From a virus (Duplodnaviria; Heunggongvirae; Uroviricota; Caudoviricetes): a stretch of 27,803 nucleotides of DNA. This document shows positions 8,439-23,369 of the stretch, piece after piece. The stretch lies in the IMG/VR virus record IMGVR_UViG_2531839664_000018, one strand, 5' to 3'. The position numbers and the translations under genes were made by a program. How positions within the stretch are numbered: position 1 is the first letter of the stretch; each line of letters opens with the position of its first letter. The notes under the pieces are model-generated. The model was not told the DNA's origin and did no database searches. It saw nothing but the letters and a program-made list of their open reading frames with translations.

Positions 8439-8515
8439 TGGTGCGTTGTACTGGATTCGAACCAGTGACCGATTGCTTAGAAGGCAATTGCTCTGTCCGG
8501 CTGAGCTAACAACGC
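8439..8515 (-). tRNA. tRNA-Arg (anticodon UCU, reads AGA)
   Basis: Hand-folded cloverleaf: acceptor GCGTTGT/ACAACGC, D-stem GCTC/GAGC, anticodon stem ATTGC/GCAAT, loop CTTCTAA, T-arm ACTGG-TTCGAAT-CCAGT, encoded CCA. Confidence 0.85.
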
Positions 8516-8528
8516 AGGGTACGGATAA

Positions 8529-8605
8529 TGGACCGCCATCGAGGACTCGAACCCCGCGCAACCAGCTTCGAAGGCTGGCGCTCTATCCCGATGAGCTAAT
8601 GGCGG
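8529..8605 (-). tRNA. tRNA-Arg (anticodon UCG)
   Basis: Cloverleaf: acceptor CCGCCAT/ATGGCGG, D-stem GCTC/GAGC, anticodon stem CCAGC/GCTGG, loop CTTCGAA, T-loop TTCGAGT, encoded CCA. Confidence 0.8.
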
Positions 8606-8612
8606 TATGTGA

Positions 8613-8688
8613 TGGTGGCCCTTGCTGGATTTGAACCAGCGACCTGGCGATTATGAGTCGCTCGCTCTCACCACTGAGCTAAAGGGCC
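8613..8688 (-). tRNA. tRNA with anticodon CAU, most likely tRNA-Ile2 (lysidine type) rather than Met
   Basis: Cloverleaf: acceptor GGCCCTT/AAGGGCC with G1-C72 paired (not initiator), anticodon loop CTCATAA, T-arm GCTGG-TTCAAAT-CCAGC; resembles E. coli ileX-type tRNA as recalled. Confidence 0.8.
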
Positions 8689-11565: not shown

Positions 11566-12669
11566 TTACCCAAGCACGCCAGTCGCAAAGGCGTGATCAA
11601 GAAAATGAAAAATCAACTCAACCTGGGACCCGTACTTTTTCTCAAACTCCAGCGGGTCAGCATGAAGTTCGTTGTGGTGCTCCCGGCACAACGGTAGTGT
11701 GAAAATATCGTGGGATTTTGTCCCCATACCGCCCTGCCCATGGCCAATCAGGTGATGGGGATCGTCGGCTGGTTTACCACAACACACGCACGGCTGTGTC
11801 TTTACCCAGCGCGTGTACTTTTCATTAACCCAGCGACGACGTTTAGGCCGTTTCATGAAAGATTCCGGGGACTCCGGATCAACGGCGATGCTTACTACCG
11901 TCTTTTCCTGTGGCGTGGTTTGTGGCTGGTGGGCGTGAAGCGGTGGCGCTATGTTTTTTGTCCGCTGCTTCAGTATGCTGGTGGCGGTCTGCTCTCCCGG
12001 TACGATGTCGCTCTCACTGTATACGGAGCGGATTTTTTCCACCGGTAATCCCAGCGAACGACGCAATACAGACTCCGGAATTGCATCAGCCACCTGATGA
12101 CAAACCGCCCACCAGCATAACTCTGCCAGCGACAGTTCCCGCTCCTGCGTGCCATTCATTGCATGACGGATGACGTCAATCATCCAGGCAGCCAGATTCT
12201 GCTGAGCAAGTTGCTCCAGTGAATCAGATGTCTGCTCCCGCAGCTGGTTGTCGCAGTGCCAGCACAACACCATCGCGCCGGTACCGTAACGGTGAATGAC
12301 GGTTTCGCTATGATGATAATCACCGTGTGGCCACTGGCAGGATTTCACGTGACGTAATAACCAGTCAGACAGTGCACCAGCGCCACCCGCAGCACGGTTT
12401 ACCCGCTCATCACTGAAAAATGGCAGTAATGATTTGTCTTCCACCAGCGGCTGGCGAACAGTGGGAACCGCTCCGGATGGCAGCGCCCGCATGTTTTTCG
12501 GTTCCGGCTCCACCAGCACCCTGCCGCAATGAAAAACCGGCAGTGATTCACGACCGGGCGTAAGGACCACCAGCCCGAGTTCCGGAACCAGAACAGGTCG
12601 AAGTAATACCCGCACATTACCTCCAGACGCGCTGACGGTAGCAGGCATGTGTCCGTGGCAGATGTGCAC
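11566..12669 (-). CDS. DUF968-family phage protein (YdfU-like) with C-terminal HNH-like zinc motif
   Basis: 367-aa ORF; C-terminus CVCCGKPADDPHHLIGHGQGG...LCREHHNELH; start codon uncertain. Confidence 0.6.
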   Translation of the reverse strand: MHICHGHMPATVSASGGNVRVLLRPVLVPELGLVVLTPGRESLPVFHCGRVLVEPEPKNMRALPSGAVPTVRQPLVEDKSLLPFFSDERVNRAAGGAGALSDWLLRHVKSCQWPHGDYHHSETVIHRYGTGAMVLCWHCDNQLREQTSDSLEQLAQQNLAAWMIDVIRHAMNGTQERELSLAELCWWAVCHQVADAIPESVLRRSLGLPVEKIRSVYSESDIVPGEQTATSILKQRTKNIAPPLHAHQPQTTPQEKTVVSIAVDPESPESFMKRPKRRRWVNEKYTRWVKTQPCVCCGKPADDPHHLIGHGQGGMGTKSHDIFTLPLCREHHNELHADPLEFEKKYGSQVELIFHFLDHAFATGVLG

Positions 12670-13474: not shown

Positions 13475-13630
13475 TTACTTCTCAGATTCGTAGTCTACGA
13501 AGACAGCGACCTCCGTCTGGCCGGTTCGGATTCGTACCTCGCAGAGGTCTTTCCTCGTTACCAGTGCCGTCACTATGACGGTTAAACAGATGACAATCAG
13601 GGCGATTAACATCGCCTTTTGCTGCTTCAT
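13475..13630 (-). CDS. hok: Hok/Gef-family type I toxin (51 aa)
   Basis: MKQQKAMLIALIVICLTVIVTALVTRKDLCEVRIRTGQTEVAVFVDYESEK with AAGGAG RBS; stable 9-bp stem with GAAA loop (13446-13467) 8 nt after stop. Confidence 0.8.
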   Translation of the reverse strand: MKQQKAMLIALIVICLTVIVTALVTRKDLCEVRIRTGQTEVAVFVDYESEK

Positions 13631-13875
13631 AGCCTGCTTCTCCTTGCCTTTCGGCACGTAAGAGGCTAACCTACATGAGCAAAGCATGAAATTGGCCTCA
13701 GATTAATGTTAAGCGTCTTGCCGGACGCGTAATGTTAACTGGGGCTTTTCTCTGTCTGCCTTACGGTGGCATGCCCGAGGCAGACAGCCTCAAGCACCCG
13801 CAGCAATTCTACTTAACTCTGCCGTTACAGCAAACCGTTTTCGCCCGATATGGGAATTCCCATATCGTAATGAAT

Positions 13876-20699: not shown

Positions 20700-20796
20700 A
20701 CCTTCCTCGGTTTAGTGTTTTTTTGCGAGTTTAGTGTTTAATAAACCATTGAGTCAAGTATTTGCTTGTTTAGTGATTACTAAAGATAATTACCAC
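20700..20796. promoter_or_regulatory. Divergent immunity-region promoter/operator interval with three direct repeats GTTTAGTG(T/A)T
   Basis: Repeats at 20710-20719, 20729-20738 and 20768-20777 in the 97-bp gap between divergent cro-like and repressor-like genes. Confidence 0.4.
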
Positions 20797-21168
20797 ATGC
20801 AAAAAAAAGAAATTCGCCGTTTACGTCTCAAGGAGTGGTTTAAAGATAAAACTCTGCCACCCAAAGAGAAGAGCTACCTATCTCAACTAATGAGTGGGAG
20901 AGCCTCGTTTGGAGAAAAGGCTGCCAGAAGAATAGAGCAAACATACGGGATGCCGGAAGGGTATCTGGATGCGGAATACGCAGAACAACCGGGGGTTTCT
21001 CCACCACATGCAGGGTTAACGTCTAATCAACTGGAATTATTGCAGATTTTTTCAGCCTTCCCTGAGGATGAGCAACGCCAGATAATCAGCGAGTTAAAGC
21101 AGAAAAAAGAATCAATGGAAGATCTCATAGCGAGATGGATTGCGGCGCAAAAATGCCGCCGCGCCTGA
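20797..21168 (+). CDS. Phage repressor-like HTH regulator (PaaR-like; DicA-like C-terminal region)
   Basis: 123 aa from ATG 20797; C-terminal LELLQIFSAFPEDEQRQIISELK resembles DicA-type repressor C-termini; first gene of a three-gene plus-strand operon. Confidence 0.6.
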   Translation: MQKKEIRRLRLKEWFKDKTLPPKEKSYLSQLMSGRASFGEKAARRIEQTYGMPEGYLDAEYAEQPGVSPPHAGLTSNQLELLQIFSAFPEDEQRQIISELKQKKESMEDLIARWIAAQKCRRA

Positions 21169-21188: not shown

Positions 21189-21380
21189 ATGAATAGAGCC
21201 CTTTCACCAATGGTTTCTGAATTTGAAACCATTGAACAAGAAAACAGTTACAACGAATGGCTGCGTGCGAAAGTAGCAACGAGCCTTGCAGATCCGCGCC
21301 CAGCAATTCCCCATGACGAAGTTGAGCGCAGAATGGCAGAACGCTTTGCTAAGATGCGCAAGGAACGGAGCAAGCAGTAA
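21189..21380 (+). CDS. Small antitoxin (PaaA-like) partnered with ParE-family toxin
   Basis: 63 aa MNRALSPMVSEFETIEQENSYNEWLRAKVATSLADPRPAIPHDEVERRMAERFAKMRKERSKQ; GGAGG RBS; stop 1 nt before toxin ATG. Confidence 0.6.
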   Translation: MNRALSPMVSEFETIEQENSYNEWLRAKVATSLADPRPAIPHDEVERRMAERFAKMRKERSKQ

Positions 21381-21381
21381 A

Positions 21382-21660
21382 ATGTTACCCGTGTTATGGC
21401 TTGAAAGCGCAGATACCGACCTAGATGATATAACTAGTTATATTGCTCGTTTCGACATAGATGCGGCTGAACGCTTATGGCAGCGATTAAGGGGTTGTGT
21501 GCTGCCGTTATCCGAACATCCGTATTTATACCCACCAAGCGACAGAGTACCTGGCTTGCGTGAGATTGTAGCCCACCCTAACTATATAATTCTATACCGC
21601 GTAACAACATCAAGCGTTGAAGTAGTAAACGTGATCCACGCAAGACGCCAGTTTCCCTAA
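21382..21660 (+). CDS. parE: ParE/RelE-superfamily toxin
   Basis: 92 aa MLPVLWLESADTDLDDITSYIARFDIDAAERLWQRLRGCVLPLSEHPYLYPPSDRVPGLREIVAHPNYIILYRVTTSSVEVVNVIHARRQFP: ParE-type motif pattern. Confidence 0.75.
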   Translation: MLPVLWLESADTDLDDITSYIARFDIDAAERLWQRLRGCVLPLSEHPYLYPPSDRVPGLREIVAHPNYIILYRVTTSSVEVVNVIHARRQFP

Positions 21661-21678
21661 CTTTCACTACCAATAGAA

Positions 21679-21745
21679 ACATAACAACCGCAACGACTTT
21701 ATCAAAAGCGTTGTGTTTGTTATGTCCCGCGGTTTAGTTTTTACT
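21679..21745 (+). terminator. Imperfect stem-loop plus T-rich tract downstream of the toxin gene (possible operon terminator)
   Basis: 17-nt arms ACATAACAACCGCAACG / CGTTGTGTTTGTTATGT (15 of 17 complementary) then GGTTTAGTTTTTAC, which also contains a fourth GTTTAGT motif. Confidence 0.35.
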
Positions 21746-22090
21746 TGACTTAAGTTTAATGTTTATTAAACTAAAAATACCAACCCACCCCGCCCCACAG
21801 AACGCAGGGAAATACTTCGAGTTACCCGGCAGTGGTCAGGGGTTAAGTAGCCAGCCCGAGGCGTATGAACATGACGGCAGGGTTCAACTTTAATAACTAT
21901 GCAGCAGGTTTTTGTTCCGCTACCCCGGCGTTAAGGGGAAACAGAGGGTTTCTCAGTGGGCGAAGTCAAACATCAGAATGGAAGGCATCCCGGGATCGGC
22001 AAAGAAGCAGCAATGGCGCTTTATATTGACATCAGCGCCATTGCAGGACAGGTAAGAGTTATCAGAGCGGTAACTAAGCGGTATGCGCCT

Positions 22091-22291
22091 TTACTTCAGA
22101 AAGTCTCTGGTGAGTGCACCGAAGATATTGTCAACGATTTCGTCATCGAACTGCGAGGACTCATCTTCAGTTACAAGGTGACCACAATTTTTGCAGATGG
22201 CTCCCGCGAAACTGTCAGAGCCCTGCGGCTTAAAGGATGTGTCAAAGACTTCGCCACCACATTCTGGGCAAGAAAACTTGATTGTATTCAT
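22091..22291 (-). CDS. Small zinc-ribbon protein (66 aa) on the strand opposite to the flanking operon
   Basis: MNTIKFSCPECGGEVFDTSFKPQGSDSFAGAICKNCGHLVTEDESSQFDDEIVDNIFGALTRDFLK; paired CxxC motifs 18 residues apart; GAGAGGAAA RBS. Preferred over the overlapping plus-strand 118-aa ORF. Confidence 0.45.
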   Translation of the reverse strand: MNTIKFSCPECGGEVFDTSFKPQGSDSFAGAICKNCGHLVTEDESSQFDDEIVDNIFGALTRDFLK

Positions 22292-23024
22292 AACCAATTT
22301 CCTCTCGAGTAACAGCCCCCTCAGAGGATACCACCTCGCCTGACGTGGTTAAAAGCAGGCTGAAAATCTGTCCGCTCTGGAGCAGGATATCACCAGGCTG
22401 GAAAAAGCAGCGGCATTAAGCATTGCCAGAATGATTACATACCCGCGTTAATAGCTAACCAACGAAGCTAAGGTTGGTAATTAAGGAGTTCTCCACGGGT
22501 GAGGTGGAGTGCGTGCGCCGGACACGGGTGAGCATACGGCACTGACAGTTTACTGAAAGGATATTTCCCTGAAAAGTCAGACCATAACGCGAAAGCGCAC
22601 GGCGAGGTAGCTGGTTCATAGATAGCCTGTCGTTAAATTTTCGTCGACCGTGCGCTTCCGGTTGTGGCAATCCGCGAAATGGCGCGGCGGTAAGTATGGA
22701 GGGGTTATTCCTTCCCCCGTTGAGGACACCGGGTTGTCAGGTTGACCATACGCTTAAGTGACAACCCCGCTGCAACGCCCTCTGTTATCAATTTTCTGGT
22801 GACGTTTGGCGGTATCAGTTTTACTCCGTGACTGGTCTGCCGCCCTTTTTAAAGTGAGTTTTGTGATGCGGTGAATGCGGCTGAGCGCACGCGGAACAGT
22901 TAAAACCAAAAACAGTGTTATGGGTGGGTTCTCTGTATCCGGCGTTAATTGTTAACTGGTTAACGTCACCTGGAGGCACCAGGCACCGCATCAACAAAGT
23001 TCATTTGTAAAAATGGAGATAATT

Positions 23025-23246
23025 ATGATTGCTCATCACTTCGGAACTGATGAGATTCCTCGTCAGTGCGTGACTCCCGGTGATTATGTTATTCATAAAG
23101 GAAGAACATATATTGCTTCGGTAAACAACATTAAAAAACAACGGCTCTATATTCGTGATTTTTCCACACAACACTGTATTAAGGAAACCATGATTAAAGT
23201 CTTCCTTGGTCGTGATGGTTTACCTGTAAAAGCAGAGTCATGGTGA
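23025..23246 (+). CDS. Kil-like small protein (KilR-family, putative host cell-division inhibitor)
   Basis: 73 aa from ATG 23025 (GGAG RBS): [46 protein letters not shown]...[14 protein letters not shown]; size and position upstream of the exonuclease match Rac kilR as recalled. Confidence 0.5.
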
Positions 23247-23369
23247 GCAGTAATAAAATAACTGCCACAATACGACATTCAGCTTAATGAATACATCAGA
23301 TTTGATTCTTATATGCCAGCAATGGCAGGGATTTGTTCATCCTTAAATCTGTCATGAGGTTAAAACAAA

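Follow-up and report, generated by a model that had tools for sequence, protein, structure and literature searches.

A DicF small RNA in the putative early-left operon of a mosaic Rac/Qin-like lambdoid prophage

The closest described relatives of the locus treated here are the dicBF locus of the Qin prophage and the early-left region of the Rac prophage, both from Escherichia coli K-12, together with a "dicF-like region" of phage P1. According to the papers through which we take the DicF literature (citing Faubladier & Bouche 1994, PMC205167; Melson & Kendall 2019, PMC6628830), the small RNA DicF derives from the ydfABC-dicF-dicB-ydfD transcript, its 5′ end being made by RNase E and its 3′ end, in K-12, either by an intrinsic terminator (the 53-nt form) or by RNase III (the 72-nt form). 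The same papers describe DicF as binding Hfq and repressing ftsZ, xylR, pykA and manX and, in enterohaemorrhagic E. coli (EHEC), which carries about four copies, as activating pchA and through it the locus of enterocyte effacement (LEE) under low oxygen. DicF is a regulator of clinical relevance, a repressor of ftsZ and of metabolic genes and, in EHEC, an activator, by way of pchA, of LEE type-3 secretion. Here we analyse IMG/VR record IMGVR_UViG_2531839664_000018, a 27,803-nucleotide stretch of tailed-phage DNA (Caudoviricetes; hereafter the window), and in it the interval 21661-23024, which an earlier note made from the letters alone had described as ORF-poor (poor in open reading frames), highly structured and possibly encoding a non-coding RNA, a nut-like antitermination site or a decayed gene. 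Our reading, to which we give a probability of roughly 0.88, is that this interval is the promoter-proximal part of an early-left (pL-type) operon of a mosaic Rac/Qin-like lambdoid prophage, with DicF, an Hfq-dependent small RNA, as its main functional product.

DicF occupies 22793-22850 (+), as 53 nt at 22793-22845 followed by a U-run. An Rfam scan, which the earlier note had proposed as a check, places RF00039 at 22794-22845 (+) over model positions 1-52 of 52, with 74.2 bits against a gathering score of 48 and E = 7e-15, which makes the sequence a member of the curated family and bears out the non-coding RNA option of that note. It is identical to K-12 dicF (b1574) at 52 of 53 nt, the lone change being C43G at 22835. 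The hairpin and T-run noticed earlier at 22808-22850 are the DicF terminator, a hairpin at 22808-22845 followed by TTTTT at 22846-22850, as is proper to rho-independent termination. The setting is likewise that of DicF: a long untranslated region with a ydfC remnant upstream, and kil downstream in the place of dicB. The 653 nt that hold DicF (22353-23005) are 96.9% identical to K-12 Qin, that is, 97% over the ydfC-dicF-dicB leader, starting at ydfC codon 41, taking in the untranslated region and dicF and stopping 16 nt short of the dicB ATG; homology to Qin ends at 23005 and resumes past ydfD at 23285. The context of the RNase E site is also conserved with K-12 (AAU|UUU at 22792/22793, with a long helix around 22864), and an RNase E-type 5′ end would be expected between 22792 and 22793 (AAU|UUUCUGG).

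The whole interval is 99.9% identical over its full length to chromosomes of E. coli O121:H19, and at least 80% of it is carried by about 920 complete E. coli genomes. The RefSeq annotation of the matching O121 genomes shows pseudogene fragments only and no DicF, and recognising this copy corrects the picture of the locus. The description as ORF-poor was apt, with only a zinc-ribbon gene and two pseudogene fragments annotated in the interval by the Prokaryotic Genome Annotation Pipeline (PGAP). "Highly structured" is right for the distal part and wrong for the proximal one: against dinucleotide shuffles, the folding z-score is -5.5 for 22452-23011 and -4.6 to -5.5 for 22846-23011, whereas segments within 21777-22451 give +1.3 to -1.0, like the flanking coding sequence. 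Every sequence feature listed in the earlier note was found at or near the place it gave.

The arrangement has the same orientation relative to the DicA-like repressor as the dicBF locus of Qin (ydfABC-dicF-dicB-ydfD), from which it differs in several modules. The ydfA-ydfB pair of Qin is replaced by the opposite-strand zinc-ribbon gene, dicB-ydfD is replaced by kil, and ydfC lacks its start and first 40 codons; in addition, the window has a Rac-like immunity region (YdaS/YdaT) and a relBE pair after the repressor. Prophages of O111:H8 and O157:H7 share the same repressor-relBE-zinc-ribbon flank and have an intact ydfC, a dicB and a ydfD-like gene. The interval combines, as a mosaic, known modules of Qin-type (dicBF) and of Rac-type lambdoid prophages, and DicF with a dicBF-type leader in this known kind of mosaic prophage is not new. 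What may be new is a covariation-supported RNA domain upstream of DicF and the view of DicF, KilS and other phage RNAs as one cassette.

The layout of the lambdoid prophage was read from the PGAP annotation of the O121 record, which is collinear with the window. On the minus strand lie the YdaS/YdaT-type cro-side region, replication genes, a Q-type antiterminator, tRNAs and lysis genes; on the plus strand come the repressor (20797-21168), relB-relE (21189-21660) and, after kil, the exonuclease, xis and int genes. Because of this gene layout around 21661-23024, we take the interval as the start of the early-left operon. An oL/pL-like control region is found at 21732-21775 (+), where a promoter scan gives TTGACT-16-TAAACT at 21745-21772, overlapped by two copies of the operator-like motif GTTTAGTGTTT (21732-42 and 21754-64), and where a dyad pairs 21750-60 with 21765-75. 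Allowing up to one mismatch, GTTTAGTGTTT occurs five times in the window, three times in the intergenic region between the repressor and the cro-like gene (20710-20778) and twice at 21732-21775; chance would give 0.5, and none of 100 shuffles reached five. A repeat search shows the 21732-21775 site to be an inverted copy of the divergent promoter region, and with the operator motif flanking the repressor gene on either side, the layout is the one expected of oR and oL.

The early-left transcript would begin with a conserved Rac-type 5′ leader at 21777-21941 (+), 165 nt that are common to many phages and 87% identical to the K-12 Rac sequence between racR and ydaG, with a 28-nt match upstream of K-12 ydfA. 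Folded alone, this leader is not unusually structured (z = +1.3). A small ORF starts within it, at ATG 21865 or 21871, and its conserved part stops at a mosaic breakpoint near 21941. Read as a 54-aa ORF (21865-22029, +), it matches phrog_37620 over residues 3-27 (E = 6e-16), the match ending at that breakpoint, and it probably represents a small early gene that lost its 3′ part in the swap that also took out ydfA-ydfB. Just past the relE stop, an inverted-repeat search gives a long imperfect hairpin (21679-21725, +) with 22-nt arms (21679-21700 and 21704-21725), 82% complementary around a 3-nt loop, with no T-run directly after it; it may be a terminator or a 3′ stabiliser of the repressor-relBE transcript.

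Between DicF and kil lies a second structured element, a leader at 22846-23011 (+) with a minimum free energy (MFE) of -64.8 kcal/mol and z = -5.47. A closing helix of about 27 bp (22846-22873 with 22984-23011) surrounds three hairpins, including 22969-73 with 22979-83 and 22941-22950 with 22958-22967; the latter contains the dyad GTTAAC-TG-GTTAAC (22951-22964) that had been pointed out just upstream of kil, now placed in a very stable predicted fold. The leader matches Rfam RF02076 (STnc100/PasD) with 37.7 bits and E = 3e-6 over model positions 26-154 of 206; as the gathering score is 47, its sequence suggests relatedness to STnc100 and not curated membership. From 22861 to 22998 it aligns to the model with the same closing helix and the same CACC-hairpin-CACC core, and the multi-branched fold, the long closing helix and the retention of pairs in homologues are all those of STnc100. 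In contrast to STnc100, a stand-alone small RNA near late or Stx genes, the element here forms the leader of an mRNA, placed between DicF and the gene of a division inhibitor. The same sub-threshold match occurs at the equivalent place in K-12 Qin, O111, phage P1, pPE4 and Shigella phage 75/02, with three different genes found after the element (dicB, kil and a third). Across 64 distinct homologues, 93.7% of the cells are paired, against 40-45% for slid controls, and eight pairs have changed on both sides, compared with 1.2 ± 0.9 in shuffles.

Overlapping this leader, PGAP annotates a "DicB, missing C-terminus" fragment (22915-22998, +). The same peptide (23 residues) lies in K-12 in frame and upstream of the annotated dicB ATG; we therefore reject it as a real dicB fragment and regard the call as a non-functional 5′ extension of the long dicB ORF, so that, judged by sequence, no functional dicB is left in the interval. 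The gene that follows, outside the interval and in the same transcription unit, is kil (23025-23246, +), a Rac-type FtsZ inhibitor (NCBIfam PRK11354, 140 bits; phrog_294 Kil) with a Shine-Dalgarno sequence GGAG at 23015-18, standing in place of the dicB-ydfD cassette. In this lineage DicF is thus paired with Kil and not with DicB. The order DicF-leader-kil is also found in Shigella phage 75/02 Stx and in phage pPE4, which makes it an established order and no isolated accident.

Extending the K-12 literature to this locus, transcription from pL would run through the leader once repression is lifted, or by read-through, and RNase E would cut in the A/U-rich linker past the conserved upstream domain to give DicF its 5′ end. 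The 3′ end would arise by one of two routes, intrinsic termination, giving the 53-nt form, or cleavage by RNase III of the long helix formed by the post-terminator sequence with the sequence before the kil ribosome-binding site, giving the 72-nt form and a processed kil mRNA. Because the published 3′ end of the 72-nt DicF (about 22864) falls inside the closing helix 22846-22873/22984-23011, this helix is probably the RNase III site in question, and the cut would also trim the kil/dicB mRNA just before its ribosome-binding site. As known from K-12 and EHEC, DicF would then pair with the ftsZ, xylR, pykA and manX mRNAs, and with pchA in EHEC; together, DicF and Kil would provide the prophage with two FtsZ inhibitors.

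Several points weigh against DicF as the main product of an early-left operon. The single change C43G falls in the half of DicF responsible for pairing with ftsZ and pykA; by a crude estimate, the predicted duplex with the leader of ftsZ loses no strength through it (-39.4 vs -38.5 kcal/mol). Processing by RNase E and RNase III is carried over from K-12 Qin, and this copy is presumed to be expressed. The head-on zinc-ribbon gene, along with a distance of 880 nt from pL, could cut the transcription that reaches DicF, and the small RNA KilS of Rac is reported to have its own promoter, so that pL need not be the sole source. Finally, KilS lacks the domain described below, yet is expressed and binds Hfq, and the role given to that domain is a proposal drawn from comparison.

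Upstream of DicF, at 22661-22776 (+), conservation and covariation define a 116-nt "pre-DicF" domain, predicted as a four-helix junction with a loop-junction pseudoknot. A closing helix P0 (22661-68 with 22769-76) encloses the hairpins P1 (22672-76 with 22683-87), P2 (22701-04 with 22715-18) and Pb (22731-39 with 22759-67), and GTATGG at 22694-99 pairs with CCATAC at 22746-51 in the Pb loop to form the pseudoknot. Pb is the perfect 9-bp stem seen in the earlier note (GGGTTGTCA at 22731-22739 with TGACAACCC at 22759-22767), and six of its nine pairs show compensatory changes in homologues. BLAST searches against phages showed 22661-22784 to be conserved at 75-89% in phages without DicF, namely Ayreon, Stx2c phages, Salmonella phage F1055 and the "dicF-like region" of phage P1. 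With a pattern scan, the domain was recovered in at least 120 IMG/VR contigs and about 17 species-representative genomes, mostly of named Enterobacterales (Escherichia, Shigella, Citrobacter, Serratia symbiotica, Trabulsiella, Erwinia and Izhakiella); a few matches in metagenome-assembled genomes labelled otherwise are near-identical in sequence to E. coli-type or P1-type copies. Because the pattern fixed CGGCGGTAAG and CAGGTTGACCAT, it accounts in part for their near-invariance; an independent scan, with the P1 hairpin as its anchor, showed no more than single-base variants in these two motifs.

The pairing of this domain is kept in 95.8-96.9% of the cells (76 sequences aligned with MAFFT; 83 distinct sequences in an alignment fitted to the model), against at most 57% for slid controls. 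Changes on both sides are seen in 11 to 12 of the 32 pairs (12 pairs, with 96.9% of the cells paired, in the set of 83), as against about 3.9 ± 1.2 in shuffles, none of 500 of which reached the observed value; the sequences compared are close relatives. The six Pb pairs are among those that covary, and the clade of phage P1 shows a pseudoknot exchange, GCATGG/CCATGC. Folded alone, the domain has an unremarkable MFE (z = -0.8), and its most conserved positions are unpaired. The sequence that precedes it, the proximal part of the long ydfC-dicF untranslated region (22452-22660, +), is 97% identical to K-12 Qin and contains a hairpin (22590-22602 with 22648-22660), with z = -0.7 when folded alone. 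For 22452-22790 there was no Rfam match at E ≤ 5, and full-text literature searches, sequence strings included, returned no description of the domain. A tRNA- or tmRNA-like element was considered and rejected, as ARAGORN finds none in 21600-23100 and no Rfam tRNA match appears at E ≤ 5; the resemblance to tRNA is limited to the four-way junction. Protein coding was rejected as well, given indels of 1 nt and other non-triplet lengths in P2 among close relatives and overlapping ORFs without a family match.

A search of the window with our own covariance model gave no second copy of the domain. With filters off, the model produced weak matches (6-9 bits, E 0.25-1.8), four of which fall on STnc100-like elements, two in the window (22851-23007 and 7519-7653) and two elsewhere (L010 1597-1755 and L198 2748-2905, the latter locus being K-12 Rac). 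The two folds share CACCGGG, ACCAU(A/G)C and a G(U/C)AUGG strand with a G-rich hairpin after it, which may reflect a distant, unproven relatedness or only a similar topology. The best secondary match (11656-11794, -; 11.7 bits, E = 0.02) lies inside a DUF968 gene and is probably spurious.

In every allele examined, the domain is followed by a variable stretch and then by a G+C-rich hairpin with a T-run. More than 12 distinct 3′ alleles occur after it, of which DicF is the commonest in E. coli. Phage P1 is a non-lambdoid phage: its "dicF-like region", downstream of the C1-controlled Pban promoters, has the same four-helix domain (96 bits with our model) and then a terminator-like hairpin, with an STnc100-like element further downstream, before tciA. 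In contrast to the window, the 3′ hairpin and seed of P1 are unrelated to DicF, no Rfam DicF match was found there, and the operon is another one (tRNAs, tciABC and ban).

K-12 Rac, with the order racR, ydaG, ydaF, sieB (opposite strand), KilS, kilR, resembles the window at both ends of the interval, with 87% identity in the pL leader and 82% from the small-RNA end through the structured leader and kil. It carries the Hfq-binding small RNA KilS in the position of DicF and an opposite-strand accessory gene in the slot of the zinc-ribbon gene. However, KilS is an allele other than DicF, the 116-nt domain has been lost and sieB is unrelated to the zinc-ribbon protein. KilS is a northern-verified, Hfq-bound RNA, and the paper describing it makes no mention of DicF. 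When KilS (L198 2906-3003, -, upstream of kilR) is compared with 22640-22850 of the window, its 5′ end is like the pre-domain sequence (GTGCGC.TCCGGTTGT) and its 3′ part resembles the non-DicF allele of locus L039, the interior of the domain being deleted.

These comparisons suggest a single modular cassette that has DicF, KilS and several unnamed phage RNAs as its alleles, with the domain upstream and the STnc100-like RNase III leader downstream. From conservation and covariation, the domain would be a constant cis-acting "handle", whose likeliest role is to set or insulate the site of processing and to protect the mRNA that lies upstream. We put forward more tentatively, and at somewhat less than even odds, that it is an undescribed, conserved phage RNA module, the constant handle of a family of allelic cassettes in lambdoid and P1-like phages across the Enterobacterales. 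In such a family only the 3′ hairpin or seed-terminator would vary (DicF, Ayreon/Stx2c, pPE4, P1 "dicF-like"), KilS would be a case in which the handle was deleted, the domain would act in cis on processing or insulation or on the terminator, and, joined by the STnc100-like leader, it would belong to one conserved unit made up of small RNA, RNase III leader and division inhibitor. If the cassette view holds, it would give insight into how prophages make and diversify regulatory RNAs and how terminators are passed in early operons that lack N.

Some alleles have a further feature in their terminator-like hairpin. In Serratia symbiotica, Trabulsiella, Erwinia tracheiphila and Izhakiella (loci L140, L151, L153 and L154), the hairpin loop encloses a Shine-Dalgarno sequence and an ATG, which opens a short ORF (MFYRGTA..., 11-39 aa) through the 3′ arm and the T-run, suggesting translation-coupled control of the hairpin in these alleles. 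This feature is absent from the DicF-type alleles of E. coli, and in Salmonella phage F1055 (L009) the hairpin has GGAGG, yet the scan found no such start.

An alternative for the domain is that it is a cis-acting terminator-control RNA, similar to HK022 put or to a riboswitch aptamer, which lets transcription pass the DicF-type and later terminators into kil/dicB, the exonuclease gene or, in P1, ban, DicF being a by-product. Its place is suggestive, as the domain always lies just upstream of an intrinsic terminator, in repressor-controlled early operons that need read-through; in phage P1 it starts about 35 nt past the C1-controlled Pban promoters, with a terminator-like hairpin next. This position, in an early-left transcript after a repressor-controlled promoter and before terminators, is comparable to that of lambda nutL/N and of HK022 put; no N-type gene lies between pL and kil, and the unpaired state of its most conserved positions is reminiscent of aptamer-type RNAs or RNAs that bind a protein or RNA polymerase. 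A put RNA, acting in cis on RNA polymerase, has two adjacent stem-loops of about 70 nt, an architecture other than the four helices and pseudoknot of the domain. A switching helix was looked for and rejected, since no alternative pairing between the domain and the terminator arms was found and phage P1 keeps the same domain loops in front of an unrelated terminator sequence. In addition, the 53-nt terminated and 72-nt read-through products are both reported for K-12, and Rac keeps kilR downstream without having the domain. Because no switching helix was found, the P1 terminator is unrelated and both K-12 products exist, we rate terminator control below a role as a processing handle and consider it unlikely.

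The only gene of the interval with a convincing coding sequence is the opposite-strand zinc-ribbon gene that the earlier note had proposed, and the ORF is real: 22091-22291 (-) encodes a 66-aa protein with four cysteines in two CxxC pairs (C8-x2-C11 and C34-x2-C37), which belongs to the ECs_2282 family, also by PGAP annotation (NCBIfam NF047912 ECs_2282_CxxC, 57.3 bits, cut-off 37). It matches the unknown-function family phrog_4852 (E = 1e-9), and Pfam zinc-ribbon matches are sub-threshold only. The comparison with sieB made in that note was also apt as to position, for K-12 Rac has its opposite-strand sieB in the slot that holds ydfA-ydfB in Qin and this unrelated gene here. The interval could then serve mainly superinfection exclusion or defence through the zinc-ribbon protein as an analogue of sieB, with the RNA structures incidental; the gene is intact, belongs to a curated family conserved in phages and is encoded head-on to pL transcription, in the slot and orientation of sieB. 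Nevertheless, slot and orientation are all that agree: the protein has no likeness to SieB and no significant match to any PADLOC model, its PHROGs family has no known function, and the promoter scan found no consensus promoter upstream of the gene. A defence role was rejected for the RelBE and Kil proteins too, which likewise have no significant PADLOC matches. As exclusion would also leave the conserved RNA elements, most of the interval, unaccounted for, we consider it quite improbable as the main function.

A third possibility is that the interval is nothing but decayed coding sequence, left over from ydfC, dicB and other genes as the prophage degraded, and produces no functional RNA. Decay has clearly taken place. 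The 3′ remnant of ydfC (22353-22451, +; last 32 codons and stop) is annotated by PGAP as a pseudogene "missing N-terminus", and alignment to K-12 and to O111 strain 8E, which has an intact ydfC, shows that 144 bp, with the ydfC start and first 40 codons, are gone relative to the O111:H8 and O157:H7 prophages. The deletion lies between two AAGCAGGC repeats, with its junction at 22353-22360, which by sequence points to a microhomology deletion. Along with the fragment of the long dicB ORF, the prophage has IS66 and IS3 insertions and several pseudogenes. The decayed-gene option of the earlier note thus holds for the ydfC remnant and the long-dicB-ORF extension, as its non-coding RNA option holds for DicF. 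However, as an account of the whole interval decay is very unlikely: DicF is intact, with a full-length model match and 52 of 53 nt as in the functional K-12 RNA; the base pairs of the domain and the leader are kept in hundreds of copies, compensatory changes included; the 1-nt and other non-triplet length changes in P2 among close relatives would not be tolerated by a coding region; and the same arrangement is carried by active Stx phages.

The deletion endpoint recurs elsewhere. The sequence GTTAAAAGCAGGC, found upstream of the zinc-ribbon gene (22338-22360), is joined in the window to mid-ydfC, and in two other loci (L061 and L142, one of them Shigella flexneri) it abuts the domain's P1 hairpin directly, so that P0 is missing; the Shigella flexneri copy has a degenerate DicF-like part as well.

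The third option of the earlier note, a lambda-type nut site used by an N-like antiterminator, has almost nothing left in its favour beyond its two strings, boxA-like CGCTCTGG at 22373-22380 and boxB-like GCTGGAAAAAGCAGC at 22397-22411, both indeed present downstream of the pL-like promoter and neither better than chance. A nut boxB is a 5-bp stem with a GAAAA/GAAGA pentaloop a few nt past boxA, in an untranslated leader, whereas the boxB-like string has a 4-bp stem, a 7-nt loop and a 16-nt spacer, and CGCTCTGG fits only 6 of 8 positions of the boxA consensus CGCTCTTA(A/C), its CGCTCT occurring 21 times in the window. We therefore dismiss the nut site, because the strings lie within ydfC codons (coding sequence 97% identical to K-12), CGCTCT is common, stem and loop are wrong and no N-family ORF was found from 21775 to the exonuclease gene, the sole annotated antiterminator of the window being Q-type and in the late region; the strings are, moreover, some 600 nt from the promoter and past a head-on gene.

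Other features of the window lie outside the interval. It contains a hok/sok locus (sok 114 bits) at 13625-13799 (-) and an IS3-family ALIL frameshift pseudoknot at 3791-3905 (+). PGAP places an IS66 element inside the replication region and two copies of IS3 close to the lysis genes, and because of these insertions the prophage is probably defective. In the late region, a full STnc100 (7477-7666, -; 148 bits) directly adjoins the anti-GcvB small RNA AgvB (7415-7476, +; 96.5 bits), the pair at 7415-7666 being downstream of three tRNA genes (8442-8688, -) and a TerB-like pseudogene. Within the interval, the 10-mer CCGGCGTTAA (one copy being CCCGCGTTAA) occurs three times, at 21925-21934, 22442-22451 and 22939-22948, with spacings of 517 and 497 bp; the first copy falls in the pL leader, the second at the ydfC stop and the third in the GTTAAC hairpin, on its 5′ arm.

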